This document shows, one piece after another, positions 968 through 53,500 of a stretch of 64,000 nucleotides of DNA. Source of the DNA: a phage; the sequence record PV467749.1. One strand, given 5' to 3'. Numbering within the stretch: position 1 is the stretch's first letter; each line of letters starts with the position of its first letter. Position numbers and translations under genes: made by a program. Under the pieces are notes generated by a model. The model searched no databases, was not told the DNA's origin, and saw nothing but the letters and a program-made list of their open reading frames with translations.

Positions 968-997
968 ATTATATCATGGGATTTTTAACCGTCCCAA
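968..997 (-). promoter_or_regulatory. candidate sigma70-like promoter upstream of gp32-like gene (-35 TTGGGA, 18-nt spacer, -10 TATAAT)
   Basis: Minus-strand TATAAT (plus 968-973) and weak -35 TTGGGA (plus 992-997); followed by AU-rich leader with UUAA-type repeats before the ATG at 880. Confidence 0.35.
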
Positions 998-1013
998 GGT
1001 TTTTTTACTCTGT

Positions 1014-1040
1014 TTGTCAAGGCTCATTGCCCTGACAAAC
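1014..1040. repeat. inverted repeat / hairpin (TTTGTCAAGGC-N5-GCCCTGACAAA)
   Basis: About 11-bp imperfect stem directly after the stop of the 434-aa gene and upstream of the gp32-like promoter; flanked by A/T runs. Confidence 0.5.
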
Positions 1041-1053
1041 ATCATTATATCAC

Positions 1054-6288
<5,235 letters not shown>

Positions 6289-15600: not shown

Positions 15601-15909
15601 CTATAGCAAGTCGTTTTCCATATCGTCAAGAACAGAATCAACGATGTTCGCTGCTATCTTCTTAGGCATCTTGAACCACTCGGTGTTAGGTTGCCTTACT
15701 GCGTTCATTTGTTTTAGTCTTTTGTGAATTTCTTTCTCTGCTAAACGTGCATCTTCAAAGTGTACTTCATGGTATACCACAAAATCTCTAAAAGGTGTAG
15801 CAGTTTGATATGTCCTTAAACGTTCTGTCATTTCAGATTTACTGGTAAATCCTATCTTAACATAATCAGGCCACGCATCATTTACTATAACATAACATAT
15901 CTGTGACAT
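15601..15909 (-). CDS. GIY-YIG superfamily, T5orf172-like domain protein
   Basis: YVIVNDAWPDYVKIGFTS...RLRTYQTATP...ARLAEKEIHKRLK...TEWFKMP fits the T5orf172 pattern; ATG 15909 with GGAGAT RBS. Confidence 0.6.
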   Translation of the reverse strand: MSQICYVIVNDAWPDYVKIGFTSKSEMTERLRTYQTATPFRDFVVYHEVHFEDARLAEKEIHKRLKQMNAVRQPNTEWFKMPKKIAANIVDSVLDDMENDLL

Positions 15910-15948
15910 AGAAAATATCTCCATCAGTAATATGAAGATATTTATTAA

Positions 15949-17491: not shown

Positions 17492-17526
17492 AAAAAAAGG
17501 GACTCCGAAGAGTCCCTATTGTTTTT
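17492..17526. terminator. bidirectional rho-independent terminator (A-run, GGGACTC-CGAA-GAGTCCC, T-rich)
   Basis: Perfect 7-bp stem; A7 upstream, TATTGTTTTT downstream; immediately after the major capsid gene. Confidence 0.8.
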
Positions 17527-27854: not shown

Positions 27855-28340
27855 ATGAAGAAAAGATTAAAAGATAGTAAAGAAGCTGCAAACTATCGAA
27901 ATGAATTACTAAAGAAGCAAAAAGGAATTGATCCTATAATTAAGGAACCAATAACTAAGCCAGTACTTGATCACTATCACTTCGAGAATCAACATTGTCG
28001 CGGAGTACTCCAGAATGAGATAAACGCCTTTGAGGGTAAGGTTTCCAACGCATGGAACCGATATGGAAAGCATTTAACTGATATGCCATTACATGAAGTA
28101 CTAAGAAACCTTGCAGATTATCTTGAAAAGAACAATAATATCCCACTGGAAGAACAGGTGATTCATCACACGGCACTAACTGTGGATGTAAACAAGTTTA
28201 AAAGGCTCCCTGCAACGCGTCAGAACGAGATATTGGGGTTATGCGGTATAGAGCCATTACCTAATACAAAAGAACGCTCAAAGAGAGCTAGAGAGCTTAT
28301 TAAGAAAGGAATTCTCAATATAAATGAATACAAAAAATGA
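27855..28340 (+). CDS. endonuclease VII-like nuclease (T4 gp49 family), Cys-poor variant
   Basis: VLDHYHFENQHCRGVLQNEINAFEG parallels the T4 endonuclease VII catalytic core (LDHDHELNG...RGLLCNLCNAAEG) but the zinc-ligand cysteines are replaced; GGGGA RBS. Confidence 0.6.
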   Translation: MKKRLKDSKEAANYRNELLKKQKGIDPIIKEPITKPVLDHYHFENQHCRGVLQNEINAFEGKVSNAWNRYGKHLTDMPLHEVLRNLADYLEKNNNIPLEEQVIHHTALTVDVNKFKRLPATRQNEILGLCGIEPLPNTKERSKRARELIKKGILNINEYKK

Positions 28341-29028
28341 TATTTTTATAGATAAAGCAAATATAAAACATAACAACAAATATGAATATACATTAGTTGA
28401 GTATGTAAATAATTACACTAAAGTTAAAATTATATGTAAGAAACATGGTATGTTTTCACAAACTCCAAATCACCATTTAAAAGGAAGTGGATGTAATGAA
28501 TGTTACTTAGAAAGCAAGCACGATACTAAAGATGACTTCATAAAAAAATCCATGAAAGTTCATGGTGAATTATATGATTACTCAAATGTGATATATAAAT
28601 CTTCAAAGAAAAAAGTTGAAATTATATGCAATAAACATGGTTCTTTTTATCAGAGGCCACATGAACATATATCAGGTAAAGGTTGTTCAGAATGTGGAGT
28701 TGGTGGTTACAAGAGAAGTAAACCAGGTCGTTTATATGTATATGAAGTTTTACAAGACGACAAAACTATAGCATACAAATACGGAATAACTAATGGTACT
28801 ATTAATAATAGAAAATATTACCATGAGTATCACTCTAACTTAAAATTTAATTGTGTTTATGAACTATATGATGAAGATGGTAATGTTCCATATAATATAG
28901 AAAAAGCAATAAAAGCTGGCATGAAAAGTGTTTTTTTATCAAAAACTATTTTAGAAGTTGGGTATACCGAAACGATAGAACCGTCTTTATATGAAGATTT
29001 GATTAATATAATAAAAAAAGGGAGCTAA
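28324..29028 (+). CDS. homing-endonuclease-like protein: two Cys/His zinc-ribbon modules + GIY-YIG/T5orf172-like domain
   Basis: Modules KYEYTLVEY...IICKKHGMFSQTPNHHLKGSGCNEC and LYDYSNVIY...IICNKHGSFYQRPHEHISGKGCSEC, then GRLYVYEV...AYKYGITNG...NNRKYYHEY (GIY..YIG..R); overlaps Endo VII-like gene by 17 nt. Confidence 0.6.
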   Translation: MNTKNDIFIDKANIKHNNKYEYTLVEYVNNYTKVKIICKKHGMFSQTPNHHLKGSGCNECYLESKHDTKDDFIKKSMKVHGELYDYSNVIYKSSKKKVEIICNKHGSFYQRPHEHISGKGCSECGVGGYKRSKPGRLYVYEVLQDDKTIAYKYGITNGTINNRKYYHEYHSNLKFNCVYELYDEDGNVPYNIEKAIKAGMKSVFLSKTILEVGYTETIEPSLYEDLINIIKKGS

Positions 29029-36521: not shown

Positions 36522-39185
36522 ATGGCAGATACAAGTAAGAAATATGCCCAACAACAGTTGGGTCGTTTTGACCCTTCGTATCCACAACTAGCAACCGTGA
36601 TGGATAACCGTGACCCAACTAAATCCGGTAAGCTAAAAGTGTGGATTCAAGGTTCACAAAGTGATAAAAATTCAAAAGAGTCATGGATTGAAGCATCATA
36701 CATGTCTCCATTCGCTGGTAAAACTCCAGGGATACCAAGTGCTGATGCTTATGGTCAATATCCAAAGGGATATGGTTTTTGGGCGGTTCCACCTGATGTC
36801 GGATGTACTGTTGTTGTTATATTTGCACAAGCAAGAACATTCCAAGCGTATTGGATTGGTTGTGTTTATGACCAACGTATGAATACGATGGTTCCTGGGA
36901 TGGCTACTGAAATAAGCAATTATGCAGGTACTGATATGCCATTACCCGTAACTGATTATGACCGTAATACAATTTCTACCAGTACTCAAGACAAATATGC
37001 AAACGTTCCAATTATTGCAGGTCTGAAAAAACAAAACTTACTTTATGATGAGGAAGCGGGTGTTGCTAACCGTAGTAGTACTCGCCAGACCACCAGTACT
37101 GTTTATGGTCTTTCCTCACCTCGTGGTAACAGTTTTATTATTGATGATGGTTACACAGAAGAAGAATTAACAGCACCTACATGGGATCAAGATCCAGATG
37201 GTTATCAGGATACCCAATTCAATAACCCAGTGAACGATACTCGTGTTGGTTCTCGTAAAAATGAAGGCGTTGTAATTAAAACACGTAGTGGTGCACAGTT
37301 GTTGTTATCTGAAGCCTCTGGTGATGTTCTTTTAATTAACCGTGATGGTACTGCACGTATTAAATTCACTGGTGAAGGTGATATTGAAATGCACTGTGAT
37401 AAGAATATTAACATTCGTGCAGGTCAAGATATTAACATGGTTGCTGGACGCTCATATAATATTGAAAGTGGAGCAGACTTCAATGCTCGTGTTGGTGCAA
37501 ACACTAAACTAGATTTGGTTGGTGCATTGGATGCTAAAGTTGGTGGTCAGGTTGTTATTAACGCTGGAGCAGATTTACGTTTAGTAACAGCAGCTTCATT
37601 ACGTATGCAAAGTGGTAGCAGTACTGATATAACTGCTGGTTCTAATGCGTCAATCTCTGCTGCTACCAGTGCTAATCTTATTGGTTCTTCATCAGCTATT
37701 ATTAGTGGTGGTGGTCAAACCCTTACTGTTAACAGTGGTGGTAATAGTGGTACTGCTGAATTTAATGCACCAAACTTCCGCACCCCATCTGCTGGCTTGA
37801 ATGATCATATACATGATATATCGGCTTGGGTTGATGCAGAGAATCACGGCAGTACTGTTGAACCTCCACGTCAAGGTGGTGGTAGTGGGAATAGTGAATC
37901 CCCAGTTCAACCTGAACCTGCTAATGATGTAGCTCCAACTTTAGCTCCAGTACAGGACACTGAAGCAATTCAATATGTAAATTATACAACAGAAACAGAA
38001 CAAGTTCAAACACAAGATTTAATGACTTCTGATCCTAGTATGACTGGTTATAGCATTACTTATGAAGGTCTTCATATGTTCATGCCGTGTAGTGGAACCA
38101 TTCGCCAATACGGTTATTGGGGGAAAGGTGTCCCGACTAGTGGTGGTGGTAAAGCTGATAGAAGTGGCTGGGAAATACAGTGCAAGGGTGATGTTGTAGC
38201 TCCAGATGGCGGTGTAGTTGTTATCACTAATGGTGCTTTATTGGTTCAACATAAGTCTGGATATAAATCTGTATTTTATAATATTCAATCAGATTTGCTC
38301 AATAAAGACGTTGTTCAAAAAGGTCAAGTTATCGGTAAAGCTAATGGTGTTATTCAATTTGAAATAAGAGTCACCTCTGCCAACGTACTAGGATTTAGTG
38401 GTTCTGTTGACCCTGGATTATTCTATGCATCCCAGACTGGTACAGGTTCTGAAGCGGGAAATAAAACATTAATTGCAGGACAAGCAACGAACCAAGCAGC
38501 ACCGAAAGCTGTTGTTCAACCTTCTGTTGATAGTGATGAATTAGTTGTAACAACTAAAATTAAAACTATCGGTACTGGGTATTCTCAACGTGGTTCTCGT
38601 CATGTCCCTCGTCGTAGAAGAACACAACGTTCAGGTGGTACTCCAGCACCTACTGCACAAGAATCATACAATGTGGGTAATGTTGATAAGACTGCAATTG
38701 ATTGGAAAGTTGTTCCGGGTGATTCACAATTTATTTCTGAATTGAAAGAATATGAAGGAACAATGGCGTATCAACAAGCTAAAGGATATTACCGCAATGG
38801 TAAATTTTGGAGATATTTGGATAGTCGTGGATTCCCAACTATTGGTTACGGTCACTTGATTGTTGGTGGTGAAAACTTCTCTGGTGGGATTACCGAACAG
38901 GAAGCCAATGATATGTTGGTGCGTGATAGTAGTAAGGCTATATATGACGCAAAATCCATTTACGCTTCTTATAAGATGAAAACACCTTACATGGCACAAC
39001 AAGTTCTATGTCAAATGGTATTCCAGATGGGTAAAGGTGGTGTAATGAAATTTAAGTCAATGCTATCTGAAATGGCTAAAGGTAACTACAAGCAAGCTGC
39101 TGCTCAAATTCGAAATTCAGCTTGGTATCGTCAAACTACACGCCGTGCTGAATTAATGGCACGTAGATTAGAGGCATGTCAATAA
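36522..39185 (+). CDS. gp5: baseplate central spike, gp5-like, with C-terminal T4-lysozyme (GH24) domain
   Basis: N-terminal gp5/VgrG OB-fold pattern (GKLKVWIQG...GYGFWAVPPDVGCTVVVIF...YWIG); central Gly/Ser/Ala-rich repeats; block GQVIGKANGVIQFEIRV resembling a LytM/M23 fold without His ligands; C-terminal EYEGTMAYQ...PTIGYGH...VFQMGKGG...SAWYRQTTRRAE matching T4 lysozyme. Confidence 0.75.
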   Translation: MADTSKKYAQQQLGRFDPSYPQLATVMDNRDPTKSGKLKVWIQGSQSDKNSKESWIEASYMSPFAGKTPGIPSADAYGQYPKGYGFWAVPPDVGCTVVVIFAQARTFQAYWIGCVYDQRMNTMVPGMATEISNYAGTDMPLPVTDYDRNTISTSTQDKYANVPIIAGLKKQNLLYDEEAGVANRSSTRQTTSTVYGLSSPRGNSFIIDDGYTEEELTAPTWDQDPDGYQDTQFNNPVNDTRVGSRKNEGVVIKTRSGAQLLLSEASGDVLLINRDGTARIKFTGEGDIEMHCDKNINIRAGQDINMVAGRSYNIESGADFNARVGANTKLDLVGALDAKVGGQVVINAGADLRLVTAASLRMQSGSSTDITAGSNASISAATSANLIGSSSAIISGGGQTLTVNSGGNSGTAEFNAPNFRTPSAGLNDHIHDISAWVDAENHGSTVEPPRQGGGSGNSESPVQPEPANDVAPTLAPVQDTEAIQYVNYTTETEQVQTQDLMTSDPSMTGYSITYEGLHMFMPCSGTIRQYGYWGKGVPTSGGGKADRSGWEIQCKGDVVAPDGGVVVITNGALLVQHKSGYKSVFYNIQSDLLNKDVVQKGQVIGKANGVIQFEIRVTSANVLGFSGSVDPGLFYASQTGTGSEAGNKTLIAGQATNQAAPKAVVQPSVDSDELVVTTKIKTIGTGYSQRGSRHVPRRRRTQRSGGTPAPTAQESYNVGNVDKTAIDWKVVPGDSQFISELKEYEGTMAYQQAKGYYRNGKFWRYLDSRGFPTIGYGHLIVGGENFSGGITEQEANDMLVRDSSKAIYDAKSIYASYKMKTPYMAQQVLCQMVFQMGKGGVMKFKSMLSEMAKGNYKQAAAQIRNSAWYRQTTRRAELMARRLEACQ

Positions 39186-39197
39186 ATATTTCAGTAC

Positions 39198-39205
39198 TAT
39201 AAATA
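39198..39205 (+). promoter_or_regulatory. T4-type late promoter TATAAATA for endolysin gene
   Basis: TTTCAGTACTATAAATAATAAT about 18 nt upstream of ATG 39223; same extended motif as upstream of the capsid gene. Confidence 0.6.
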
Positions 39206-39222
39206 ATAATGAGGAAATCTTT

Positions 39223-39711
39223 ATGAGTAAATGGGAAATCAAAAATACCGACGAACAATTTTTTAAAGAAATTAAAGAATTTGAAGGTACTATTGCGTAT
39301 CAGAAAAAACTTGGTTATTTTAAAAATGATAAGTTTTGGGTATATAAAGACAGTCTAGGTCTTGATACCATTGGTTACGGTCACCTTGTACTTAAGGGTG
39401 AAAGTTTCAAAAATGGACTCACTGAAGCAGAAGCTGATGCTCTCCTTATAAAAGATGCTCAGACCGCTTACAATGACGCAAAATCAATCTATGATCAATT
39501 TGGAATGACTGCTCCAGTACAGGTTCAGCGTGTATTGTGGTTTATGGTGTTCCAAATGGGTAAATCAAAAGTTTTAAATTTCAAAAAAGCGATGGCTGCT
39601 CTCGGTCGTGGTGATTATAAAACTGCTGGTAAAGAAATGCGTGATAGTTCGTGGTACAAACAAACCACATCCAGAGCGGAGAAGATGGCTCGCATCGTCG
39701 AATCCGTATAA
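39223..39711 (+). CDS. e: endolysin, T4 lysozyme-like (GH24)
   Basis: EFEGTIAYQ...YKDSLGLDTIGYGH (catalytic Glu/Asp/Thr equivalents), FMVFQMGKS, SSWYKQTTSRAEK; GAGGAAA RBS; close paralog of the C-terminal domain of the adjacent spike protein. Confidence 0.9.
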   Translation: MSKWEIKNTDEQFFKEIKEFEGTIAYQKKLGYFKNDKFWVYKDSLGLDTIGYGHLVLKGESFKNGLTEAEADALLIKDAQTAYNDAKSIYDQFGMTAPVQVQRVLWFMVFQMGKSKVLNFKKAMAALGRGDYKTAGKEMRDSSWYKQTTSRAEKMARIVESV

Positions 39712-39726
39712 TAAAGGAAACACATA

Positions 39727-40122
39727 ATGGCAATTGTTTTTAAAGGTTTTTCAACTCCAGTAGTTGGAAGAACTGAAACATTGTATGACAGTGAATTGGT
39801 TCGTCAGGATTTAATGAATCATTTCAATACAAAAAAAGGTGAACGTGCATTTGATGCTGATTATGGGTTCATTGCGTGGGATTTGCTATTTGAATTGGAT
39901 GGTTATAATACAATCAACCTTTTGGAAGCAGATGCCCGTAGAATTATTAGCTTGGACCCACGTTTAAGCTTAAAGAAACTTCAAATATCAAGAATTGAGT
40001 ACGGTTATCAGATGGATATAGTACTTGAATATGTTGTTCTCAATACTCTTGAAGAATTAACTATAGTTTTTGATGCAAGAAGTAACAACAGAATGGCTAC
40101 CTATTCTGTATCATCTTTGTAA
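39727..40122 (+). CDS. gp25: baseplate wedge protein, gp25-like
   Basis: 131 aa; block RIISLDPRLSLKKLQISRIEYGYQMDIVLEY typical of the gp25/GPW family; AAAGGAAA RBS; upstream of gp6-like gene. Confidence 0.7.
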   Translation: MAIVFKGFSTPVVGRTETLYDSELVRQDLMNHFNTKKGERAFDADYGFIAWDLLFELDGYNTINLLEADARRIISLDPRLSLKKLQISRIEYGYQMDIVLEYVVLNTLEELTIVFDARSNNRMATYSVSSL

Positions 40123-40127
40123 ATTAT

Positions 40128-40157
40128 AAAAGCACTCTTCGGGGTGCTTTTCTTTTT
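40128..40157 (+). terminator. rho-independent terminator with UUCG tetraloop (AGCACTC-TTCG-GGGTGCT, T-run)
   Basis: 7-bp stem (one G-U), UUCG loop, followed by TTTTCTTTTT after the gp25-like gene. Confidence 0.75.
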
Positions 40158-40194
40158 GGATAAATATTTCTATATATAATTTATAGGATGATGT

Positions 40195-40959
40195 ATGAAA
40201 TATGCAACAACCAGATCAACAAAATACAAATTTGTAACCAACGCCATTAGAGTGCATGGTATGCGTTATGATTATAGTATGGTTAAATATCATAATGCTA
40301 AAACAAAGGTGTGGATCGGATGTGAGAAGCATGGGTTTTTCCTACAAACACCAAATGACCATACATGTGGCAAAGGATGCATGGAATGCTCGGTTGAGTA
40401 TAATGCGAATCGTCAGAAAAGTCCACAGAACTTTATAAATTTTCTTAATAAGGCTAATTTAAAGTTTAGAAATAAATTTGATTATAGCACAGTAGAATAT
40501 GTTAATAATAAAACTCACATATCCATAATATGCCCAACACATGGGTCTTTTTTACAAAGACCTGATAATCATTTGTCAAGTAAGTATGGTTGTGAGAAAT
40601 GTATGATTGAATCAACGCAATCAAAAGCAGTAACTGATATTGAAAAAATGATATCTTTCACTAATTATGTTAAAGAAAAGCGTTTTGATGATTGTAGAAA
40701 CATATTAACTTTGCCATTTGATTTTTATATTGAAGATTTAAACTTGTGTATTGAATATGATGGTGAACAACACTTTCGATGTTCTGAACATTGGGGTGGT
40801 GACAAATCGCTAAAACAAACTCAACACAATGATAAAATTAAAAACACGTACTGTGCTGACCATGATATTAACTTACTTCGTATCAAATACGATGAAGATC
40901 ATATCATCGTACTAAAAAAGTACTTTTATGATAATTTTAACATAATATTAAAGGATTAA
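40195..40959 (+). CDS. homing-endonuclease-like protein: two Cys/His zinc-ribbon modules + C-terminal PD-(D/E)XK-like domain
   Basis: Modules RYDYSMVKY...IGCEKHGFFLQTPNDHTCGKGCMEC and KFDYSTVEY...IICPTHGSFLQRPDNHLSSKYGCEKC; C-terminus LPFDFYIEDLNLCIEYDGEQH...KIKNTY resembles DUF559/Vsr-like PD-(D/E)XK nucleases; inserted between gp25- and gp6-like genes. Confidence 0.6.
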   Translation: MKYATTRSTKYKFVTNAIRVHGMRYDYSMVKYHNAKTKVWIGCEKHGFFLQTPNDHTCGKGCMECSVEYNANRQKSPQNFINFLNKANLKFRNKFDYSTVEYVNNKTHISIICPTHGSFLQRPDNHLSSKYGCEKCMIESTQSKAVTDIEKMISFTNYVKEKRFDDCRNILTLPFDFYIEDLNLCIEYDGEQHFRCSEHWGGDKSLKQTQHNDKIKNTYCADHDINLLRIKYDEDHIIVLKKYFYDNFNIILKD

Positions 40960-40963
40960 TACA

Positions 40964-43900
40964 ATGTCACAACAAAAAAGACAGTCTAATTTATATAGTG
41001 GTGAGGATTGGACTCAAGTATATGAAAGTTTCTATAAAATCAATCTTACGGCATATGATTTTGATACCATTCGTCAAAGTATGATTGATTATCTACGTGC
41101 TACGTACCCCGATTCTTTCAACGATTGGATCGAAAACGACCAGTTTATCTTTATTCTAGATACCATTTCTATGCTAGGCCAGAACTTAGCATTCCGCATG
41201 GACTTAAACACCCGTGAGAACTTCCTAGATACTGCTACTCGTCGTGCATCAGTACTGAAACTCGCAAAAATGATTTCTTACTCTCCACGCCGTTCATATC
41301 CAGGTCGTGCAGTTGCTAAATTAACAGAAATAAAAACCAACCAAGACGTTCGTAATAGTTTTAACGAATCACTTAAGGATAAAATCATTCGTTGGAATGA
41401 CCCAATGGACACAAACTGGTATGAGAACTTCATTCTAGTTATGAACAGTTCATTTGTCAGTACTAACCAGTTTGGTAATCCGGTTAAACGTATCGATATC
41501 AATGGTGTTTCTCGTCAGCTATATCGTATGAATACAATTCCAATGTCAGCACCAAGTCTTCCATTCACAGCTACAGTTAATGGTGAATCGATGACATTTG
41601 AAGTTGTCAACCCTGATATTACCGCAGTTGGTGTTGAAGAGCGTCACCCTGAACCACAAGAGCAAAAATATATCGTTTATCAGAATGATGGTAACGGATT
41701 TAGTTCTCCAAATACTGGTTTCTTCGTTTATTTTGTTCAAGGGACATTGACATACCAAGATTACCAATATAATATTCGTGAAGAAAACCGTATCCAAGAC
41801 ATCAACGTAGATAATATCAACGAAACTGATGTTTGGGTTCAGGAAATCAACGAAGATGGTATTGTACGTACTAAATGGACCAAAGTTCCATCTATGGAAA
41901 GTATCGCATACAATACTGTTAACCGTCAACTAAAAACAATCTTTGCTGTCACAACTCGTGATAAAGACCAGATTACTATTAAGTATCCTGATTCTCGTAG
42001 TGGTGTTGTTCCTCGTGGGACATATCGTGTATGGTATCGTGTTAGTAATGGTGAAACATACAACATTAAAACGTCTGAAATCCAGAACAAAAGTGTAAAA
42101 TACACCTATAGAACCAAAACACAATCAAGCTACGAATCCAGTACTTTGGATATTCGTTTCACATTGCAATATGAATCAGATCGTGCACAAAGTGCAGAAA
42201 CAATTGAACAAATTAAGGCTCGTGCTCCACAAATGTATTACACTCAAAACCGTTTTGTTAACGGCGAAGACTATAACATTGCTCCGTTGAGTTTGGGTAA
42301 CACAGTTCTTAAATCTAAAGCAATTAACCGTTTATATAGTGGACAGTCACGATTCATTGATATTAATGATCCAACTGGTAAGTATCAAAACACTGATGTG
42401 TTTAGTGATGATGGATCAATGTATCAAGAAAACACACAATTTAATAAATCTTTACAATTACCAACTACCAAAACAAATGCTAGTATTGTAATTGATAATA
42501 TTCAGCCATTGATTGGTGAGAATGCTGTAATCCAACGTTATCAAGCATATCCACCGAATACAATTGGTATTGAAATTCAACAAAAATGGACACCTGAATA
42601 CAATTCTAATTACGCAACTAATACGTATGGTCGTATTATGGGGGCAACAGGTAACGTATTCGGAAATTATCAAGTTGGTACGTTGATTAAGTTTTCAAAT
42701 GCCGGAACTACTGTGTGGGCTAGTATTGTTAGTGTTCTTGATAATGGATATTACGTTCTAAGTACTTCAGTTTCATCAAATATGCAAGCACAAGAGTACA
42801 TTTTACAATACAGAACACGTTTTAATAGTGTCGAAGTGCAAGCAATCGCCGCAATGCTTGATAAAAAGACAGATTTTGTTATTATTCATGATAAAGAAAC
42901 AACTTCTTGGATTCCATTAGAAATCAGTACTGATGAAGATACTATTTCTTATAATGGAAATGAAGTTCTTGTTATGATTAACATCAAATATACTGCTGAA
43001 ACATGGGAATTTGATGCGAATGGCGTTGAATATGTGTTCGTTGGTGGTGATAAAGTTCGTTTTTACTTCGTTTCTTCTAAAAAGATAACTGATATTAGTA
43101 CTGGTAGTGTTCAAAGTGACAAAATTGAAATTTTATCATCAAATACCACAAGCAATAGTAATGCTGGGTTGACAAGTAACATAGATTTCCAAATTTATGA
43201 CACAATTCAACAAGAAAACGGGTATCTTGATGGTTCTCGTGTGGTTATCACCTCTGAAAACGTTGATAGTAATGGAATCCCACTAGAACCTAATCAATTC
43301 AGAGAAATTGTACCAAATTGGACTGGTGAAGATTCAGTTAAATATGGTGGTATATTGGTTTTCCAAGAAAACGATGATTTCACTATATCAGTACTGTCAT
43401 TACCGAACGATACTTTCACTATTCTTGATTCTTCATGGGCTTATACAATGGATCAGGCACTTGCAGAAACTAATGCGTATAAGAGAAGTGAATTTGTTCG
43501 CAACAATGCTATTCGCTCAACAACATTGAGTGGTATCTATAGTAAAGGTTCAGGCTTTATGGTTGGCTTTAAATATGATGGTAAATATTACTTCATTGAA
43601 CAAACTGTTGGTAATAATAATGACCGTTTAAACCAATTAATTGAGAACTTGACCTATTCTGATGATACAACTGCTGCAACTCCTGAACTTGCGTTTTATC
43701 GTGCTATTGTTAATATCGGTACTAATGCTGATGTTAACCAAAAGTTAGATTATTATGGTTATAAAGATGTAACTTCACAATATACCGTAAAAACGAATGC
43801 AAGAACTGGTATTGATTTCCACTGGAAACATTATGCACCAGATGATAATCGCATTGACCCAAGTAGAACAAACTTGATTGACATGTATGTATTAACCAAT

Positions 43901-44425
43901 TCATACAAAACTGAAGTTGATGTATGGTTGAAGAATGGAACACAAGGTAATATGCCTAAACCGCCAACATCTGTTGAATTGAAAGACATTTTTAAAGAAG
44001 TTGAACAAAAAATAGTCATCAGTGACAGTATTATTTGGCATAGTGCAGAATATCTACCATTATTTGGTGCGAGTGCTGCTGAAGATTATAAAGCAGATTT
44101 CAAAGTCGTCAAATTGCCTAACAGTACAATGAGTGATGATGAAATTCGTCAAAATGTCGTAGCACTAACTAACGAGTATTTTAATGTTGACAACTGGGAT
44201 TTTGGTGAAAGTTTCTATTACACAGACTTGTGTACATACATTCACTCCCAATTAGGACGACATATTAGTACTATTGTTATCGTAGCTCAAAACCCTAACT
44301 CTAAATTTGGTTCACTATTTGAAATACCTTCACGTTCTGACCAGATTTTCTTAAGTACTGCATCAGTTGATAACGTACAGATAGTCAATTCCTTGGCTAA
44401 GAGTAACATTAACATTGGTTCATAA
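40964..44425 (+). CDS. baseplate wedge protein, gp6-like (1153 aa)
   Basis: Large ORF following gp25-like gene (conserved gp25-gp6 synteny); AAGGA RBS; assignment mainly positional. Confidence 0.5.
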   Translation: MSQQKRQSNLYSGEDWTQVYESFYKINLTAYDFDTIRQSMIDYLRATYPDSFNDWIENDQFIFILDTISMLGQNLAFRMDLNTRENFLDTATRRASVLKLAKMISYSPRRSYPGRAVAKLTEIKTNQDVRNSFNESLKDKIIRWNDPMDTNWYENFILVMNSSFVSTNQFGNPVKRIDINGVSRQLYRMNTIPMSAPSLPFTATVNGESMTFEVVNPDITAVGVEERHPEPQEQKYIVYQNDGNGFSSPNTGFFVYFVQGTLTYQDYQYNIREENRIQDINVDNINETDVWVQEINEDGIVRTKWTKVPSMESIAYNTVNRQLKTIFAVTTRDKDQITIKYPDSRSGVVPRGTYRVWYRVSNGETYNIKTSEIQNKSVKYTYRTKTQSSYESSTLDIRFTLQYESDRAQSAETIEQIKARAPQMYYTQNRFVNGEDYNIAPLSLGNTVLKSKAINRLYSGQSRFIDINDPTGKYQNTDVFSDDGSMYQENTQFNKSLQLPTTKTNASIVIDNIQPLIGENAVIQRYQAYPPNTIGIEIQQKWTPEYNSNYATNTYGRIMGATGNVFGNYQVGTLIKFSNAGTTVWASIVSVLDNGYYVLSTSVSSNMQAQEYILQYRTRFNSVEVQAIAAMLDKKTDFVIIHDKETTSWIPLEISTDEDTISYNGNEVLVMINIKYTAETWEFDANGVEYVFVGGDKVRFYFVSSKKITDISTGSVQSDKIEILSSNTTSNSNAGLTSNIDFQIYDTIQQENGYLDGSRVVITSENVDSNGIPLEPNQFREIVPNWTGEDSVKYGGILVFQENDDFTISVLSLPNDTFTILDSSWAYTMDQALAETNAYKRSEFVRNNAIRSTTLSGIYSKGSGFMVGFKYDGKYYFIEQTVGNNNDRLNQLIENLTYSDDTTAATPELAFYRAIVNIGTNADVNQKLDYYGYKDVTSQYTVKTNARTGIDFHWKHYAPDDNRIDPSRTNLIDMYVLTNSYKTEVDVWLKNGTQGNMPKPPTSVELKDIFKEVEQKIVISDSIIWHSAEYLPLFGASAAEDYKADFKVVKLPNSTMSDDEIRQNVVALTNEYFNVDNWDFGESFYYTDLCTYIHSQLGRHISTIVIVAQNPNSKFGSLFEIPSRSDQIFLSTASVDNVQIVNSLAKSNINIGS

Positions 44426-44433
44426 CACATTAA

Positions 44434-44457
44434 GGCGTTCTTCGGAACGTCTTTTTT
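44434..44457 (+). terminator. rho-independent terminator with UUCG tetraloop (GGCGTTC-TTCG-GAACGTC, T6)
   Basis: Stem-loop followed by TTTTTT directly after the gp6-like gene stop. Confidence 0.65.
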
Positions 44458-44461
44458 ATAT

Positions 44462-44469
44462 CATAAATA
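44462..44469 (+). promoter_or_regulatory. late-promoter-like motif CATAAATA upstream of the giant ORF
   Basis: One mismatch to TATAAATA, about 35 nt upstream of ATG 44506. Confidence 0.35.
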
Positions 44470-44505
44470 AATCAAATGAATGAACGAATTATATGGAGTC
44501 CAAAA

Positions 44506-47500
44506 ATGACTAATAATTTTAAGTTTCAACCTACACAGATGGCTGAAGCAGTACAGAAGAAGCTTTTCATAAAAAGATTGCCTGAGTGGATGCAAGGCTT
44601 AGAAGATATTCAGAAAGTCAGTGATGATGTTATCCAACAATGGTTTAATCCGGCTGAAAACGAATTAGTTGACGGCTACATTGGTGACATGGGTTCTCCG
44701 GCAGCAGCAGGGAACATCTTCTTACACGAGTCAACAGTCGCACGTCAACTATATCAGTTGTCCACTGCGTATGTCTCAAGAAATGATGACTCCAGCATTC
44801 GTTCAATTCAATTTTATGATGATCTAGTTGGCTATATGAATCATTACGGGGCACTAACCGAAAATGAAAGCCGTTTGTTTAATGGTAAGTTCTATTCATG
44901 GACCCCACCAATTAACCCTAACAAAATGAACAACTACAGTTCATATCTATGGGATTCCAAGAATAGCTATAATATCGCAACTCCAGATTATATTGTAATG
45001 GAACGTGGTGCAGAAAATGGAAACACTTGGTCACTACAAAACTTCTGGTACACATTAGGTGAAACTTTAGAAGATGGTACAATCCTAACTGAAGAACTAA
45101 TGCAAGATTCCCGTTTTGTTCGTGCTCGTGCTCCAATTATCGAATACAATAAAAATATCGAACTAATGAACTACGGTACTAAATTCCGTGGGACAGTTGA
45201 TTTGTTCTCTGATATTATTAAACCTGAAGATATCGTACAAAAAGATATTAACAGCGGTATACGTATTGATGGTATTATTCCACAAGATGGTATGCGTATT
45301 CTTTTCACCAGTATTGGTAACAATGGTGAAAACAACCGAATTTATAAAGTATATGTTAAACGTATGCAAGATGGAACACGTGTGTATGGTCTAGCATTAG
45401 ACCCAGACGAAGAATCTGAAAGCCGTCCGAGTGGTGAACCACAAGATGGTGACGTAGTTCTTATTATCAAAGGTAATGAATTTGGTAACAGTTCCATGTA
45501 TTGGGACGGTTCTCATTGGATTCAAGCACAGTCTAAAACTTCTGTGAACGTATTTCCACAATTCCAATTGTATGACCGTAATGGTGTTAAACTAAACAAC
45601 ACTACTACCTATCCATCAAGTACTTTTACTGGTTCTTCATTATTTGGTTTTAAAATTAACTATAATTATGCAACCGATAGCGTTTATGGTTATAACATTG
45701 AACTGGGTGATTACAATTATTACACCTATGAGAATTTCCTACAATCAACTCGTTATACCTACGAGCATTTGGGTGTGGAAGTTGAAATTGATGGACTATA
45801 TTACTATAACGTAATTGGTGAAGGTAATACAATGAACCTAGAAACTGATTGGGTTCGTAGTACTGAATACTCCAAACAATATGTTAAACAAACTCCACAG
45901 GTTGAACGTACAGTAATGTTCCGCGTGTTCAGTACTGTTTATGACATGGAAAGTTTCAAAGATCCAGTTGAAGGAATGTATGCTTATGTAATTGAAGTTG
46001 ACAGAACTTATCAATATTACAAAGCAGAACGTGAAACATATCTTGATTGGCATGTTATCGTTGGTGATGGGGTACAAAGCGTTAAGTACAATCATACATT
46101 TGAATTGGCACAAAAAGTACTAGATAATTCTGATGATATTATCGAACTAGTTGTTGATGGTGTGGAAATAAAAGAATACACCAAAACTGTAGTTAATAAT
46201 CAAGTACAAAGTATTACAATTGATAGCTCTGTTGATTTGGATGAAGATTCTGTTGTACAAATAAGAACTTATAGTAGCACTATCACTCCTAATAAAGAGT
46301 TGGGTGCATATGAAGTTCCAATTAACCTACAAAATAACCCATATAATTCAAACATTGAATACATCAATCAAGGTGATTACACCCTGCACTTCCAAGATAT
46401 TATTCAAAAGAATATTACATCTGGTTCTGCTGATGACTTTAACAATTACGAAGAACGTTTGGCTGCTGGTTTGGTTAATAATGGTGTAGGCACTAAAATT
46501 ATTCAAAACGAAGCGTCCATGTTACCACTAATGGCACATACCGCTAATGAAGATATTGATTTGTTTGAATCAATCATGTTTATGCAAGCAGAATACTTCC
46601 GCTTCATTAACAAGTTCAACACTCAAATGCTTCGTTTGTATGAAGAAGACCCAAGTGCTTTTCTTGGTAATAGTGCATCAAACATCGTAGATGCGATTCT
46701 AACAGCTATTAATATGGGACGTGATAGTTCATTCCCATTCTACTATGACAACGTTGCAAGCACTGCTGGGTTTATTCGTGCATTTGTCCCACCAACTCCA
46801 CAGTTCTTGGGTATTTTGCAAGCTTATACACCACAAAAAGCAACATTCTTAACTGCTGGTAGTAAATCTAGCTGTTATAATATCAGTCATACTGGTGTTA
46901 TTTCAAAAGCATACCGTGTTATCAATGGTGTTGATAAAATGGATGACGTAGTTTTTGAATTGGAAAATCGTATCTTTAATAGTATTGACCTTACTTTCAA
47001 GGATATTGATTATAAACCAGTACTAAACAGTGAAGACCTATTCCCAACTCCATATTTCACTGGTACTGATTATAGTGCAGAAGAAAAGAAAACTCTATTA
47101 CTACGTGGTTACATTAACTTCACAGCAACCAATGGTATTAGTAACAGTACTCATGATTATGATGCAAATAACTGGAGAACTTGGAACTATACTGGTAGTT
47201 ATTATGTTGTTGATGGTCAACGTACTGAAATTCCTGCTCGTGGTTCATGGCGTGCAATCTATACTGACCAATATGGCACATATCGTCCAGCAACCCATCC
47301 GTGGGAAATGATGGGCTTCTCTCAACGTCCTACTTGGTGGAACCAAGAATACGAACCAACCGCAGTTCAAGTTGGTGAACGTGAGGGTGATGTTGTTTAT
47401 GTGTATGAAGCACTAGTAATGAATGAAAATGGTGATTTGGTCCCAAGTGGATTGTGGGATATTGATGGTACTATCGGTGACAGCAGCACTGGTACTATTT

Positions 47501-50500
47501 TGTCCGGTGAACGCCGTGGTCAATATGACAAATACAAGCGTTTCGGTGTACAGCCATTTAAAATCACTAAGACTGGCGAGAAAACCAGTACTGGTATTGA
47601 TATTTGTGAAGTTGAGTATATTGCACCTGAAGTTTTAGGTCTTGTTAGTGGTAATTTAGATCATCGTGCAGAACCGTGGGCTTATGGTGACATGGGTGAC
47701 ATGGAATTCACTTACATGAACACTGCGATGTTTGCTTATGACCAAATGCTTCTTCTATACAAAGCAAAACCAGCACAGTTTGCAAACTATTACTGGGATA
47801 CCCGTAATGATAACCTTAAACCAGTTTATACTGATGGTTCACAGTTCCTTTATGGTGAAACCCGTAAGCGTCTAAACTTTGACAGTGCTACATTAGTACA
47901 TGGTGAGAAAAATACCCGTACTATCGGTTATCAAATGTTTGTTAGTGACTATTTGATGTATCAGAATAAGAACATTACCACCAAATACGGTGACGTTGTT
48001 CGTTCTTCTTATGTCAATGTCGCTCACAAAATTGGTGGCTTTACTAAAGCAGACCAATTGACATTCACTGCTAAATCTTTCGGTTTGATTTCACAAGAAA
48101 ACCAAACTATCGGTCTAGTTCGTTCCAATAACATTCGCGATGAGCAAATGAGTGCAGTAAAAATTACTTGGAATGGTAGTGCATATCAAATTGATGGTTA
48201 TGATTTAGTTGGTGCTAAATTTAAATATAAAATTCCAGTTAAAAATGGAAGAAAAGTAACTCTTAAATTGGAAGACAGAACTGTTGTTCATTACAATGAA
48301 TGGAAATCTGAAGGTACATTAGAATATGGTAAAATATTCAATACATACCAAGAAGTTTATACTTTCATTTGTGGATATGGTGAATATCTAAAAGAACATG
48401 GCTGGATTTTTGAAGATGTAAATGATAGTGGTGCTCAACAAGACTGGACAACTATTGCTAAAGACTTTGTTATTTGGAGTCAGAATAATTTAAGTACTGG
48501 TGAGTTCATCTCCTGTACTCCAAGTGCAGCTAATGCTAAATTTGGTGCAGATTTTGGTTCAGTTCAATCTGTTACACAGAACAGTGGTGGTGTTTGGTCA
48601 CTACTCGATGATGAAAACCAAGGTATCCGTCAATATGAAATCGAAACTTCGCGTATCGGTAACGTATTCACAGTGAGAACTACATCTGAATCACAAAAAC
48701 GTATGGCGTTGATTCGTTTGAGCCTAAGTTCATATGAACACGCAGTTGTTTTTGATGATAAAACTATCTTTGGTGATTACATTTACCAACCAACTTATGG
48801 TGCTATTCAAGAATTGATTAAAATGTATGGTTACATTACTGGGGCATGGACTGGTCGCCTACAAGCACCTGGTTTCATTATCCTAGAAGCAGGAACTTTA
48901 CCATCATTTGAAAAATTAGTAACTGATTTTGAATTATATTATAATAGTGAAACTCCTGTGAGTGATGTTCAGCTTCAAGAGTTATCAAATCACTTGATTG
49001 GCTATCAAACTCGTGATTATCTACAACGTATGATTAGTAGTGATGTTAGTCGTGTTGATTTCTATAAAGGATTCATTCATGACAAAGGTACTAACCAAGT
49101 AATGGAAAAAGTACTACGCGTTTCTAAATCTTACGACACTGATGAATATAAAGCACTACAGGAATGGGCATTTAAGATTGGCACTTATGGTAATATCAAT
49201 GGTAAGAAAAATCTACAATTTAAACTAATCAATGACCAATTTAAACAACAACCACAGATGGTTTCGTTTGATGTTAATGCTACATCAAATGGTACTGGTA
49301 ATGGTATTGTTTATTACGGTGAACAAGGGGTTGACTCACGCTGGATTACTCGTCCAAATGGTAAGTTTTCATTCCCAATGCGTAGTGGAAGAAGTGAGAA
49401 TATCCAACTTCCAGACATTGGCCCAGTAACACTAGATGAAATTTCATACGTTACTAAAGATTTCAGTACTGCATATAATGATCGTATCAATTATATGAAT
49501 AACAGTGGTGAAATACCAGATTCTGTATGGATGTTTAAAGATGGTAATGATTTGTGGAATATTTTCGAACTAGTAGACACTGAAGTTGAGATGCTCTCTA
49601 TCGTTCCAATTGAAAATACCGATGTATATGCAGAACAATTCTGTAAAGTAACTCTAAGTGATGATATCCCACTAAATGATGGTGATTATTATTACTTTGT
49701 TGATGAAACTAACTTTATGCCAGATACATTGACTATAGAAAGTCAATATTATACTGCGGGTAATGACCCTAGAGTTATGGTAGTTCCGTTTGACACTTCA
49801 ATAACTATTGACTTCACTGATCCTGATACTCGCCCACGCTTGTATCGTTATGTTTCACGATTCAGTACTGAAGAGATGCGTCAGGAATACATTGACAGAA
49901 AATATAGTTTTAAAGCTCCACAAAGTACTTTGTTTGACCGCCCAACCACATATGATGAGCGTACTAACATTACTGCGTTGTACCTAAACGTGTTTGACCC
50001 AATCAACGGTGTTATTCCTGGTGCAGCGATGCAGAACGTTACCTACACATCTCCAGTTGACCCAGCACAATACAACAGCAATGGTGAATTGATTCAAGCA
50101 TGGGGTGCTGATAAAGTTGGTCAGGTTTGGTGGAACACCAGCACTGCTTTCTACTTAGATTACACTCGTGCAATCTATGATGCTGATGGTAATGTGGATG
50201 TTGATGCAACAAATGAATATAAACGTTATAACTGGGGCAGATTGCTACCGCACAGTACTGTTGATGTTCTTGAATGGGTATGTTCGCCAGTGGAACCATA
50301 TAACTGGGACAAATACTGTAAAGACGTTGCTAACAAAAATAAAAACAATACTATGTACCTACCAAGCGGAACCGCATTGGAAGATAATTATAGTACGTTC
50401 TTAGAATATGATAGCACAACTGATACTTATGTTACAAAATACTATTTCTGGGTTCGTGATACAATCTATGTACCACCATTGCATTCCAGAACTAAATCTT

Positions 50501-53500
50501 GTACTGATATTGCTCGTATTATTAAAGAACCAGCACAGCTTAACATTCCTTGGTTTGCACCAATCAATGAAAGCTCGTTCATTCTAAGTAATATGCAATT
50601 TGAAGTCAACGATGACACAAGTATTTTAACTGTTTCTTATTACATGGATAATACTGAAGTTATTAAACATGACCAGTATCAATTATGTAAAGAAGGTGAT
50701 AGCTATAACTTCAATCCATCAATCTGGACTTCTATGTGGAATTCTATGATTGGTCAAGAAACTACTGAATCAGGAACTGTTATTGATTTACTATATCCTT
50801 TAGTACCAAACGGTTTAGGTTCTAATAAGACTTGGTTCCAAGATGTAATTGAAGCTCGTAGAAACTTTGTAGAAAGTGCAAATAACTATTATCGCTCACA
50901 GAATATAACAACTAACACTGTTCTAATGGACGAAGTGTTTAATGTTAAAACTACTGAAGTTAACCCGAATGAAGTATCATATCGTGTACTAACTTACAAT
51001 AGTGAATTAGTCATTGCACCTGAAAGTGACAAGTTCAAAGAAAACGACGCAGTACTAGTAAGTACTAGTGGTGTATTACCTAACCCACTATCAACTAGCT
51101 CTGTATATTTTGTGCATATTGATGCTAATGGTTATATTCATCTAATGAATAGTCCATCAAGTGCTGGTAGTGTGGTTACCATTACATTGGAAAACCGTGG
51201 TGAAGGTCAACAGAAAATGATTAAACAATCAGACTATGTTGAAGCACTAGGAACTTCATTGGACATGACCCAGTACTGGTCACTAGCAGATTGGTATGAT
51301 ATTGGTTACGATAAAAATACTGCATATACACAAGAATCCAGCCTAGAAGATGCAAACACTAAGAACTATCAAGTTGGTGACATTATCAGAATTACAGATG
51401 TTGATGGCATCTGGACATTGTACATTAAAGCACAATCACGTGATTCAGTTTACTGGAAAGCAATTGGTCGTGAAAATAGTACAGTTGAATTGAATGATAT
51501 GTTATACGCTGACTATACAGTTCGTGATGCTAATGGTTCGTTGAGTAATCGTGAGATTAACGTTCGTAAAGCACTAGCTTTATTGAAGAACTCATTCGAC
51601 TTACATCAGAGTGAAATTGTGTTTGATATGGTTAAGTATGTTCACGTAGAACAAAGCGTTGTTGATTGGGTATTCAAAACATCTTACATTTATATTGTAG
51701 GTTTAGAACAATCATTAGTACAGAACTATTCCAACGACAACTTGATTAATCAAATCGTTGAGTACTTTGAAGAAGTTAAACCATATAGAACTAAGATTCG
51801 TTCCCAGATTGAACAGAAAACATCAGATGATGATTTAATTAAAGGTTTGTGTAATGATTTAGATCCTAATGGCTATATATTTGCAGATGGGACTTGGGTT
51901 AAAACGGAAAAAGACATTTGGGATTATGAATATGCTCAATTCAATGAGGTAACTCAACGTTGGGAGCAAGTTGGTGAATTGCCAAGTGATTTCGTAACAC
52001 CTAATCGCCGTTTCCAAGAAATTGATGTTATCATGCACTACGACAACACTCAATGTAAACCAAATGATAATTTGGCAAGTGTTGATGTATTGGAAGAAGT
52101 GAATAAGAAATATCAATCTAATGCACAAGATGTTGTTAGTAATTTTGAATTACAACGTTACAAATATACATTCCCAGAATACAGTGATGAAGATTTCGAC
52201 CTATTGGTTGCTTATCAGATGCAATTGTATTACCCAGAATTGAACGTAACTCTAGGGATTGCTTACGGTGTTAACCAATGGTATGCAGACCATGCAGATG
52301 ATTTGGTAGCAACCGCAGAATTCACAGAAACGTTGAATCGTGTATATAAAGAATCAACACAAAATGAAATGTTTAATGACGTAAATCATTACGTTCAGTA
52401 TAACACACTCTCTAACCGTTTGAAATTGTACACAGGTGCAGATGATGAAGTAATTCATGATGAAGTTGGATGTGGATTTAGTGGGTTAACCTATGATGAT
52501 AATCCAAGCACCAGACTACCGTTTGGTTATGCATCCAGTACTGATTATAACTTTGGTTACTTTGAAGTTAGTAGTGAGTTGTATAAAAAGTATGTTTCTT
52601 TAATTAAAGAAAACAATACTACTGCAACTGATGATGAAGTTAGAATTATACTTGAAGTTGAATATGGTGTTTATTCATATCGCCATGTAGATGAAGATGG
52701 AAATCAACGATTCTACAATGACGCAATTCATGTATTGTCCGGTATGCGTGGTTTGTATGACAAAGATGCTACCGACCATTATGAAAAGGCTGAAGAAATA
52801 CTAAGTAGAATGCCTATTGATATTCATGCATTTACTATGATGCCACGAAAATATGTTTATGTTAATGTTAATGGTGTATACGAGAGTATCCCAGATGACC
52901 AAAGCATTGATGATTTCATGGAAGACAAATTCATAACTGACGGTCAACTAGTTCAATTGGCAGAAATAAATCTTGATGACTTACCTCTTGATAGAAATAA
53001 CCCAATGTACAGTGATTATCAGCACATCCTAGATAGCATCACCGATGCTAAGTACTACGATGATATGAATGCATTTGATAACCTAGCACTTGAATCACAA
53101 ACTTCCGAGTTAAAATGGGAAGTTGAAGGTGACGAAGTAGATCCGTACATAATCGACATTTCTGATATTAACCCATCAGGAAGAAAGATTGGTCAGATTC
53201 GCTTCACAGTTGATGGTTATGGATTCAATAGTGTTTCACTAGTTCAATTGAGAGACAATAGTAGATATAAAACTGAAGGTATGGTTATTATCAACCCTTA
53301 TAAAACAACAGAAGCAATTGTTAGTATTCCTTCTTACGCTAAGATTGAAAATGATATTAGTAAATCATACAGTAAGTATGATGAAAAATACTTCTATAAA
53401 ATTAAATCAATTGTTAGTGATACAGAAGCTGAAGTAATTGACAATACCCTATCTGATGGTGATAAGGTTATGATATTCACAACTGATGGTGAAGATTATG

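Follow-up and report, generated by a model that had tools for sequence, protein, structure and literature searches.

Several free-standing homing endonuclease genes (HEGs) of phage T4, belonging to the seg and mob groups, are promoter-less cassettes that rely on upstream host promoters and whose products cut away from the insertion site (Edgell, Gibb and Belfort 2010, PMC2988022). Nuclease genes have also been found to sit at the boundaries of genetic exchange between phages, and zinc fingers of the DUF723/CapR type, arranged in repeats, have been described as the units with which homing endonucleases of phages bind DNA (Barth, Nguyen and Seed 2023, PMC10448857). The EDxHD family is defined by residues E170, D196, N208, H213, and D222 of I-Bth0305I (Taylor et al. 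2011, PMC3239194), and EDxHD or Vsr-like homing endonucleases include the free-standing Hef of T-even phages (Dassa et al. 2009, PMC2677866; PMC3239194). Here we analyze an open reading frame (ORF) located between a gp25-like and a gp6-like baseplate wedge gene in 64,000 nucleotides of phage DNA (PV467749.1; this whole stretch is referred to as the window). The genome is that of an Escherichia coli jumbo phage of the genus Asteriusvirus, and we read the ORF as a free-standing HEG, with a probability of about 0.8. Its predicted product is a combination of zinc fingers and a Vsr-like nuclease, i.e., a known reading module joined to a different cutting module.

A megablast search with positions 39200..42000 of the window retrieved 35 phage records representing 33 distinct genomes, all of them Asteriusvirus jumbo phages of Escherichia or Salmonella (i.e., 121Q, PBECO4, and similar phages) with genomes of ~310-386 kb; none of these records matched the window in full identity. 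The nearest backbones, ~98-98.5% identical, were those of Ecwhy_1, fEgEco12, EC.P1, BF17, vB_Ec-M-J, WPEC3/5, and Turkey3. An earlier sequence-only reading of this stretch had proposed a free-standing homing endonuclease insertion between the gp25-like and gp6-like genes, to be checked by presence or absence in related phages. The position was confirmed, and far from being carried by all relatives, the gene was found in only three of the 33 genomes (121Q, JP4, and JNE01), at exactly the site it occupies in the window and with 83-87% amino acid identity. At the same junction, 29 genomes have a spacer of 100-102 bp without the gene, and the remaining one, TH47, has an unrelated GIY-YIG/I-TevI-like ORF. 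The five nearest gene-less relatives that were compared flank by flank (Ecwhy_1, fEgEco12, BF17, WPEC3, and Turkey3; ~98-99% flank identity) all lack the endonuclease gene, and the gp25-like gene of the window is 100% identical to that of Ecwhy_1. The junction was aligned in 10 genomes, both gene-bearing and gene-less, and is identical to the base among those compared. The right boundary of the inserted DNA is imprecise because the last ~50 nt resemble the 5' untranslated region (UTR) of gp6 in gene-less genomes. This similarity is modest (alignment score of 23 points, shuffle p ~0.009, with better chance matches elsewhere in the window), and the gene-less UTR could conceivably be the scar of an ancient deletion of the endonuclease 3' end.

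The flanks of the insertion point bear out the proposed insertion as well. Relative to Ecwhy_1, the window has no differences over 39201..40181 (981 bp), right up to the insertion point, followed by 24 differences in 40981..41212, nearly all at third codon positions, and then by ~10 differences in the 2.3 kb after this tract (~0.3%). Given ~44 differences over ~5 kb of flank, ~2 would be expected in 257 bp as compared to the 24 found. The other four gene-less close relatives show the same tract (24 differences each in four of the five, 25 in WPEC3), and identity to the gene-less close relatives over 42001..43111 is 99.2-99.8%. To the left of the gene, conversion was not detectable (< 74 bp in the comparison of the window with L011, a Logan metagenome contig from SRR22071712). 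By analogy with T4, a one-sided tract of this kind is what would be predicted if intronless homing started from a cut on the right side of the insertion point (Edgell et al., PMC2988022), and it also agrees with the placement of nuclease genes at boundaries of genetic exchange (Barth et al., PMC10448857).

The same haplotype was found next to the gene in other backbones. That of L011 is 90-96% identical to the window, and its endonuclease gene together with positions 40964..41109 (146 bp) is 99.6-100% identical, the latter stretch being shared exactly; L011 switches back to the haplotype of Ecwhy_1 after ~41100, ahead of the window (~41212). Positions 40964..41000 are 100% identical in 121Q, JP4, and JNE01, the backbones of which are otherwise 75-92% identical to the window, and the shared gp6 haplotype ends after ~40 bp in 121Q (compared to PBECO4) and after ~65 bp in JNE01 (compared to Turkey5). 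These alignments suggest that at least four backbones have received one and the same small block, its right end differing among them. The 5' tract of gp6 in TH47 is also diverged, with 83-85% identity to Ecwhy_1 over 40964..41220 versus 98-100% on either side.

The gp6-like gene, the 121Q counterpart of which is annotated as T4 gp6-like, is the probable target of the endonuclease. The first ~60 nt of gp6 are identical in five of five Asteriusvirus carriers despite 15-19% divergence of the endonuclease gene. Furthermore, positions 40984 and 40987 (CAG TCT versus CAA TCA/TCC) separate all carriers of the 254/262-aa gene, including a 70%-identical phage (L012), from all non-carriers examined. From these patterns, we infer that gp6 codons ~5-12 are the best candidate for a recognition or immunity site; part of the gene-bearing variant (TAT AGT) is kept by the gene-less UE-S1. 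Orthologues of 309 aa with three fingers (L017, L019, and L020) adjoin another gp6 haplotype, and any such specificity would therefore be clade-specific. The features of the locus are listed in Table 1.

Table 1. Features of the gp25-gp6 junction, with positions in the window except for the TH47 ORF (positions in L004).
Feature	Position	Strand	Evidence or detail
gp25-like baseplate wedge gene, 131 aa, left flank	39727..40122	+	Pfam GPW_gp25 34.7 bits (cutoff 27.2); PHROG 43
Intrinsic terminator of gp25 transcript	40128..40157	+	Terminator scan; folding; 10-bp stem AAAAGCACUC-UUCG-GGGUGCUUUU and U-run
ATAAATA, candidate phage late-promoter core	40160..40166	+	Position-specific motif; conservation (cf. 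T4 TATAAATA)
TATAAT, part of native conserved CTATATATAATT (40170..40181) ending at insertion point	40175..40180	+	Present in gene-less genomes
Insert DNA absent from gene-less alleles	40182..40949	+	Junction alignments; left boundary exact, right boundary imprecise (40909-40949)
Putative free-standing homing endonuclease gene, 254 aa	40195..40959	+	PHROG 559 E = 2e-55; PHROG 9084 'homing endonuclease' E = 2e-22
Zinc-finger repeat 1, residues ~23-68, ligands C43, H46, C62, C65	40261..40398	+	Internal repeat alignment; weak Pfam DUF4379 treble-clef match
Zinc-finger repeat 2, residues ~93-138, ligands C113, H116, C133, C136	40471..40608	+	Pfam DUF723 (PF05265) 31.9 bits, cutoff 20.9
Predicted Vsr-like (EDxHD-type) nuclease domain, residues ~143-250	40621..40944	+	Invariant D176, E187, H193, D213, K216
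gp6 Shine-Dalgarno AAAGGA, inside last endonuclease codons	40950..40955	+	Sequence
gp6-like baseplate wedge gene, 1153 aa, right flank	40964..44425	+	Full-length PHROG 10646 match; PHROG 219
Putative co-conversion tract, gp6 5' end	40964..41212	+	Flank comparison; donor-type haplotype, Ecwhy_1-type backbone after ~41212
Candidate recognition/immunity site in gp6	40978..40998	+	AGA CAG TCT ... TAT AGT (gene-bearing) vs AGG CAA TCA ... TAC GCT (most gene-less)
TH47 (L004) endonuclease ORF, 235 aa	2494..3201		PHROG 314 'homing endonuclease' E = 2e-14; weak GIY-YIG and I-TevI DNA-binding-domain matches

The endonuclease ORF starts with ATG, is preceded by a Shine-Dalgarno-like AGGA at 40185..40188, and is far beyond chance, with 384 homologues at E <= 1e-5 in addition to the PHROG 559 match. 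Self-alignment of the protein identified its two zinc-finger repeats as copies of one module, the ligands of which (C-x2-H...C-x2-C) are invariant in an alignment of 46 homologues. This pair of DUF723/CapR-type CHCC fingers is presumably the sequence-reading (DNA-binding) module. The five nuclease-domain residues in Table 1 are likewise invariant across the 46 homologues and lie in the C-terminal ~110 residues, and an AlphaFold2 (AF2) model built on the same alignment had a predicted local distance difference test score (pLDDT) of 93.8. In this model, the nuclease is predicted to have a Vsr-like (EDxHD-type) fold within the PD-(D/E)XK-like superfamily, and to be neither a canonical PD-(D/E)XK nuclease nor an HNH nuclease. 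The sequence-only reading of a zinc-ribbon/PD-(D/E)XK nuclease was thus right about zinc fingers (of which there are two) and a nuclease, and held for the superfamily, not for the canonical fold.

Compared to the EDxHD family, the window protein has an invariant Asp/His/Asp (D176, H193, and D213) that would correspond to that of the family, with the D176-to-H193 spacing of 17 that is found in I-Bth0305I and an H-to-D spacing of 20 versus 9, a residue mapping made only by spacing and fold. Members of this family are also phage-borne, with an N-terminal DNA-binding module and a C-terminal nuclease, and free-standing ones are known. On the other hand, their N-terminus is of the NUMOD2/helix-turn-helix type where the window protein has a pair of CHCC fingers (DUF723), their motif begins with Glu and that of the clade of the window protein with Val, the window protein has no detectable sequence similarity to the entry in the PDB, and its gene lies outside any intron or intein, between two complete ORFs. 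E. coli Vsr differs in that it consists of one domain, nicks DNA specifically at mismatches, and has a structural zinc site of its own, whereas the window protein has two extra zinc-finger domains, is encoded in a phage structural operon, and shows the behavior of a mobile gene.

Other assignments of the gene were also considered. No Pfam HNH match (i.e., the beta-beta-alpha-metal motif) was obtained for the endonuclease ORF and its catalytic domain is predicted to fold like Vsr, so the name 'HNH endonuclease' used by RefSeq and PHROG 559 for the Asteriusvirus family (121Q gp584) appears to be a misnomer, and the annotation would be better changed to a Vsr-like nuclease. The ORF had no match to the T5orf172 (GIY-YIG-like) nuclease domain, and NCBIfam gave no match for either the window or the TH47 endonuclease. 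Membership in a defense system was rejected, as 0 families of the PADLOC profiles matched the endonuclease at E <= 0.01. The association with a group I intron (in 121Q, 'protein associated with group I intron') was rejected too, since no group I/II intron or other Rfam family was found at 39000..42000.

The ratio of nonsynonymous to synonymous substitution rates (dN/dS) between the window endonuclease and its 121Q, JP4, and JNE01 orthologues is 0.08-0.12 at a dS of 0.8-1.0. All five endonuclease alleles are intact, and these three orthologues are each 254 aa long. Judging from these ratios, the gene seems clearly to be under purifying selection, its function being maintained, although the constraint is tighter on gp25 and gp6 (dN/dS 0.02-0.05).

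Some observations speak against a homing endonuclease with the proposed history. The missing left-flank conversion could also mean that the donor shared that flank. At the first EDxHD position, the window protein and the relatives closest to it have a valine, V146 (E in 26 of the 46 homologues, V or I in 17), and the replacement of this glutamate could alter nuclease activity. Neither 3r3p nor Vsr was recovered at E <= 10 from all PDB sequences by phmmer or by the 46-sequence profile, so that it is the predicted fold that ties the endonuclease to I-Bth0305I and Vsr. Other, metagenomic Rak2-like phages have orthologues of 47-64% amino acid identity between gp25 and gp6 as well, which would also fit long vertical residence with repeated loss. 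Lastly, nucleotide divergence among the endonuclease genes of the window, 121Q, and JNE01 amounts to 15-19%, and thus most carriers appear to be old rather than recent acquisitions.

Among the alternatives, we consider it improbable, though the best of them, that the gene is a passive accessory gene or a defunct HEG that no longer cuts the empty site and is shuffled by ordinary homologous recombination among mosaic genomes, the tract being an ordinary patch. Patchiness does occur elsewhere (10 differences at 38651..38861, varying among close relatives), and both V146 and the age of the alleles (dS 0.8-1.0 between carriers) would suit a gene that has ceased to home. However, a dN/dS of ~0.1 and the invariance of all catalytic and zinc-binding residues point to a working protein, and 24 differences in 257 bp, where ~2 would be expected, are not a random patch. 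Moreover, the patch abuts the gene in four independent backbones with the same discriminating sites each time, and TH47, with a second HEG family at this site, has a similar tract.

The position of the gene relative to expression signals is in line with a free-standing HEG as well. The terminator upstream of the gene has a folding energy of -12.4 kcal/mol (z = -4.3; 0 of 200 shuffles equally stable). Its stem is kept in gene-bearing and gene-less genomes and the loop varies (TTCG, TCAT, TTCT, and ACTT), so the tetraloop itself is not conserved. On its two strands together, the window has only 20 copies of the motif ATAAATA, 14 of which are in sense orientation at -70..-11 upstream of 47 crudely called genes, where 0.4 would be expected and the antisense control gave 1. 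The copy at 40160..40166 is invariant in 10 of 10 aligned genomes, gene-less ones included, and the motif is at the same place after the terminator in distant gene-bearing loci (L012, L017, L019, and L020), with L020 having TATAAATA, the T4 late consensus. ATAAATA is thus probably the late-promoter core of this phage, and from its positional enrichment, its invariance in gene-less relatives, and its recurrence in distant loci we read this copy as a candidate native late-type promoter of gp6 that is now 5' of the endonuclease gene.

All aligned genomes share the terminator stem and GCTTTTCTTTTTG(G/A)ATAAATATTTC..TATATA, and diverge directly after CTATATATAATT (40181). Since the terminator and the stretch through CTATATATAATT are near-invariant in gene-less genomes, both appear to be native to the gp25-gp6 spacer and not carried by the insert. 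The sequence-only reading had taken the UUCG-tetraloop terminator and a -10-like TATAAT as parts of the insertion; both elements exist, and neither was brought by the gene. A sigma-70 scan gave no promoter using this TATAAT, which has no -35 partner, and promoter-like matches in the region equal the shuffle expectation (31 versus 28). A sigma-70 -10 role of TATAAT was consequently rejected in favor of ATAAATA. Similarly, gp25 and gp6, presumed contiguous in that reading, are adjacent in gene-less genomes, with the terminator and the promoter motif between them. In the annotation, the terminator and ATAAATA belong with the host operon and not with the insert.

The endonuclease gene was inserted ~15 nt downstream of ATAAATA with its own AGGA ribosome-binding site, and its stop codon (TAA, 40957..40959) is 4 nt before the ATG of gp6, with the AAAGGA-N8-ATG arrangement before gp6 likewise present in gene-less genomes. 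This layout suggests a promoter-less cassette just downstream of a native promoter-like motif. A search for the 15-nt spacer sequence elsewhere in the window gave 9 matches, as compared to 9.4 expected, i.e., no enrichment. The leader shared by the endonuclease genes, CATGGAGTGATGTATGAAA, had no match when sought in the window and is therefore not a generic leader of this phage.

We propose that during co-infection with a gene-less relative the allele of the latter would be cut by the enzyme, either at the insertion point or slightly to its right, with the first ~40-140 bp of gp6 as the most likely place, and that recombinational repair off the gene-bearing genome would copy in the endonuclease gene along with a variable stretch of the gp6 5' end. 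The endonuclease gene would be transcribed from the late-promoter-like ATAAATA of the spacer, which in gene-less genomes serves gp6. Because this motif is upstream, the gene has its own Shine-Dalgarno sequence, and its last codons contain the ribosome-binding site of gp6 and end 4 nt short of the gp6 start, bicistronic expression is probable; endonuclease and gp6 would share one late mRNA and baseplate expression would be preserved. Enzymatic activity, cut position, immunity substitutions, and transcript structure are the inferred parts of this scheme.

Such a scheme has parallels in the T4 seg/mob genes (PMC2988022). Shared features are the promoter-less cassette using an upstream host promoter, the patchy distribution among relatives, and a cut site displaced from the insertion site with obligatory one-sided co-conversion, which is predicted for the window. 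The differences are that the T4 nucleases are of the GIY-YIG and HNH types and that the window gene, the nuclease activity of which is a predicted one, belongs to the Rak2-like jumbo lineage. A second parallel is offered by the T5orf172 HEGs with CapR/DUF723/DUF4397 arrays (PMC10448857), which have the same 'beads-on-a-string' zinc-finger repeats in variable number (two in the window protein, three in the 309-aa orthologues) and are inserted beside essential or structural genes at genetic-exchange boundaries; two such genes are present in the window itself. Their nuclease is T5orf172/GIY-YIG-like, as opposed to Vsr-like.

Slightly less probable still than the passive-gene alternative is domestication, in which the gene would encode a nuclease or DNA-binding protein useful to the phage, such as a regulator of gp6 or late genes near the promoter (as in I-TevI autorepression or CapR) or a weapon against competing or superinfecting relatives, with homing not needed. 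Long occupancy of the same junction across Rak2-like phages at 47-64% amino acid identity, purifying selection, the location between the late-promoter motif and gp6 with stop/start coupling, and the identity of the first ~60 nt of gp6 in all carriers though the HEG diverged are all compatible with such a role, and a repressor role is known for CapR-type zinc fingers (PMC8096241; Barth et al., PMC10448857). Against this, 29 of the 33 Asteriusviruses do without the gene and one has an unrelated GIY-YIG gene instead, the conserved nuclease residues would be unneeded by a pure repressor, PADLOC gave no match, and homing normally brings marker exclusion of competitors with it in any case (Edgell et al. 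2010, PMC2988022). A role in baseplate structure or assembly, with expression alongside gp25 and gp6, would suit the position inside the baseplate gene block and the probable late co-transcription with gp6, but is effectively refuted by the absence of the gene from 29 of 33 related genomes with otherwise near-identical baseplate genes, and disfavored by the domain content (zinc fingers and a nuclease) and by family members elsewhere that adjoin replication and nucleotide-metabolism genes.

Returning to the homing endonuclease reading, the age of most alleles points to a long history in which the gp25-gp6 site would have been occupied, lost, and re-invaded, with recent transfer documented only for the window/L011 pair. 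The GIY-YIG ORF of TH47 has a 17-nt leader and ATG AAA in common with the Vsr-type gene of 121Q and JNE01, which is suggestive of an in-place exchange of one endonuclease gene for the other. Different HEG families in one intergenic slot of different phages are likewise known for the free-standing HEGs of T4, with segH/hef replacing mobC/mobE (Sandegren et al. 2005, cited in PMC2988022).

Relatives of the endonuclease are encoded at 531 loci in IMG/VR. Among the best 80 of these, 77 have no gp25 or gp6 homology nearby, and clear homologues of gp25 and gp6 on the two sides of the gene are limited to 121Q; among ten neighbors that were sampled are genes for a helicase, a UvsX-like recombinase, DHFR, and Sir2 as well as a further member of the family. 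Several copies are present in many genomes, e.g., at 14 places in Klebsiella phage KP13-7 and 8 in TH47. This distribution points to a mobile family. In unrelated, smaller metagenomic phages, members of 42-44% identity are found directly upstream of a 615-aa gp6-like gene (L032/L034, gene 46..948 and neighbor 924..2771; L044/L045, gene 2989..3681 and neighbor 3681..5528), and the gp6 5' end may thus be a recurrent target of the zinc-finger/Vsr-like lineage. Two other metagenomic contigs show a clustering of this family: L024, a viral contig, has two members back to back, 1832..2932 (-) and 3001..3897 (+), and the 55-kb contig IMGVR_UViG_3300033146_003625 has at least three copies.

These observations can be joined in a broader reading that we regard as tentative, in which the spacer is a long-lived landing pad for endonucleases, a distinct zinc-finger-Vsr lineage tracks gp6, and the phage carries a self-immunity mark. 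In the gp25-gp6 spacer of Rak2-like jumbo phages, unrelated endonuclease genes may compete and take each other's place, as supported by the 17-nt leader and first two codons that the TH47 gene has in common with the Vsr-type gene. The zinc-finger-plus-Vsr lineage may also be a distinct, uncharacterized homing endonuclease architecture that has long tracked the gp6 5' end, since orthologues are found there down to 47% identity and again upstream of the 615-aa gp6-like genes of unrelated phages. The array of two to three fingers could encode a readable, possibly re-programmable recognition code. If this reading is true, three linked synonymous changes in gp6 codons 6-8 would be the self-immunity mark, and selection by the endonuclease itself would be the reason why all carriers agree over the first ~60 nt of gp6.

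With textbook comparative signatures that are unusually well documented, the window gene appears to add to the known class of free-standing homing endonucleases, and no general concept is changed by it. It would provide a clean natural example, in a jumbo phage, of intronless homing with a one-sided conversion tract, and of one insertion point used by two endonuclease families, in line with the recent picture of nuclease genes marking genetic-exchange boundaries between phages. No biochemical study of the class that combines a zinc-finger array with a Vsr-like nuclease was found in the literature searched, and the first ~40-140 bp of gp6 offer a concrete target for it.

The window is rich in nuclease cassettes. 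The ORF at 16323..17420 (-) encodes 365 aa with approximately four zinc-finger repeats and a T5orf172-like domain (PHROG 681, E = 1e-76). It is directly downstream of a putative major capsid gene (17561..18736), after a UUCG-loop terminator at 17517..17498 (-), and has a perfect sigma-70 promoter (TTGACA-17-TATAAT), so it is probably another HEG with its own promoter. A second ORF, 28324..29028 (+), encodes 234 aa with two zinc fingers and a T5orf172-like domain (PHROG 681, E = 4e-50), and its start is overlapped by an endonuclease VII-like ORF (27855..28340, +; PHROG 423, E = 5e-35). Of these two zinc-finger paralogues in the window, only 16323..17420 matched Pfam T5orf172, at a sub-threshold 17.9 bits (cutoff 20). 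A stand-alone T5orf172/MUG113 ORF of 107 aa is located at 15601..15924 (-).

The differences from Ecwhy_1 at 38651..38861 (10 in ~210 bp) fall in the C-terminal lysozyme domain of an 887-aa gp5-like hub protein (36522..39185), and over 38701..39200 there are 0 differences in BF17 and 23 in both WPEC3 and Turkey3. This domain is paralogous to a stand-alone lysozyme at 39223..39711 (PHROG 13211 match), and gene conversion between the two lysozyme paralogues is a possible source of the patch. Downstream of gp6, a further UUCG-loop terminator is found at 44432..44453 (+), followed by another ATAAATA at 44463..44469 and by a single ORF of 3333 aa (44476..54477, +) with counterparts of 2964-3341 aa in L017, L019, and L020, presumably a giant baseplate or tail-fiber protein. 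ATAAATA was also observed upstream of the genes starting at 6422, 25971, 27855, 33196, 39223, and 62593 (+), and of those ending at 2358, 15559, 18736, 19942, 25825, and 62483 (-).

Palindromes are usually avoided in phage genomes, hence the excess of AGTACT was unexpected. This palindrome is the most over-represented hexamer of the window, with 132 sites (e.g., 40020, 40919, and 41251), i.e., 6.6x the order-1 Markov expectation. In the large structural ORFs it is mostly in codon frame 0 (AGT ACT), and it is also present in many leaders; the 5' UTR of gp6 in gene-less genomes has AGTACTgaactAGTACT.

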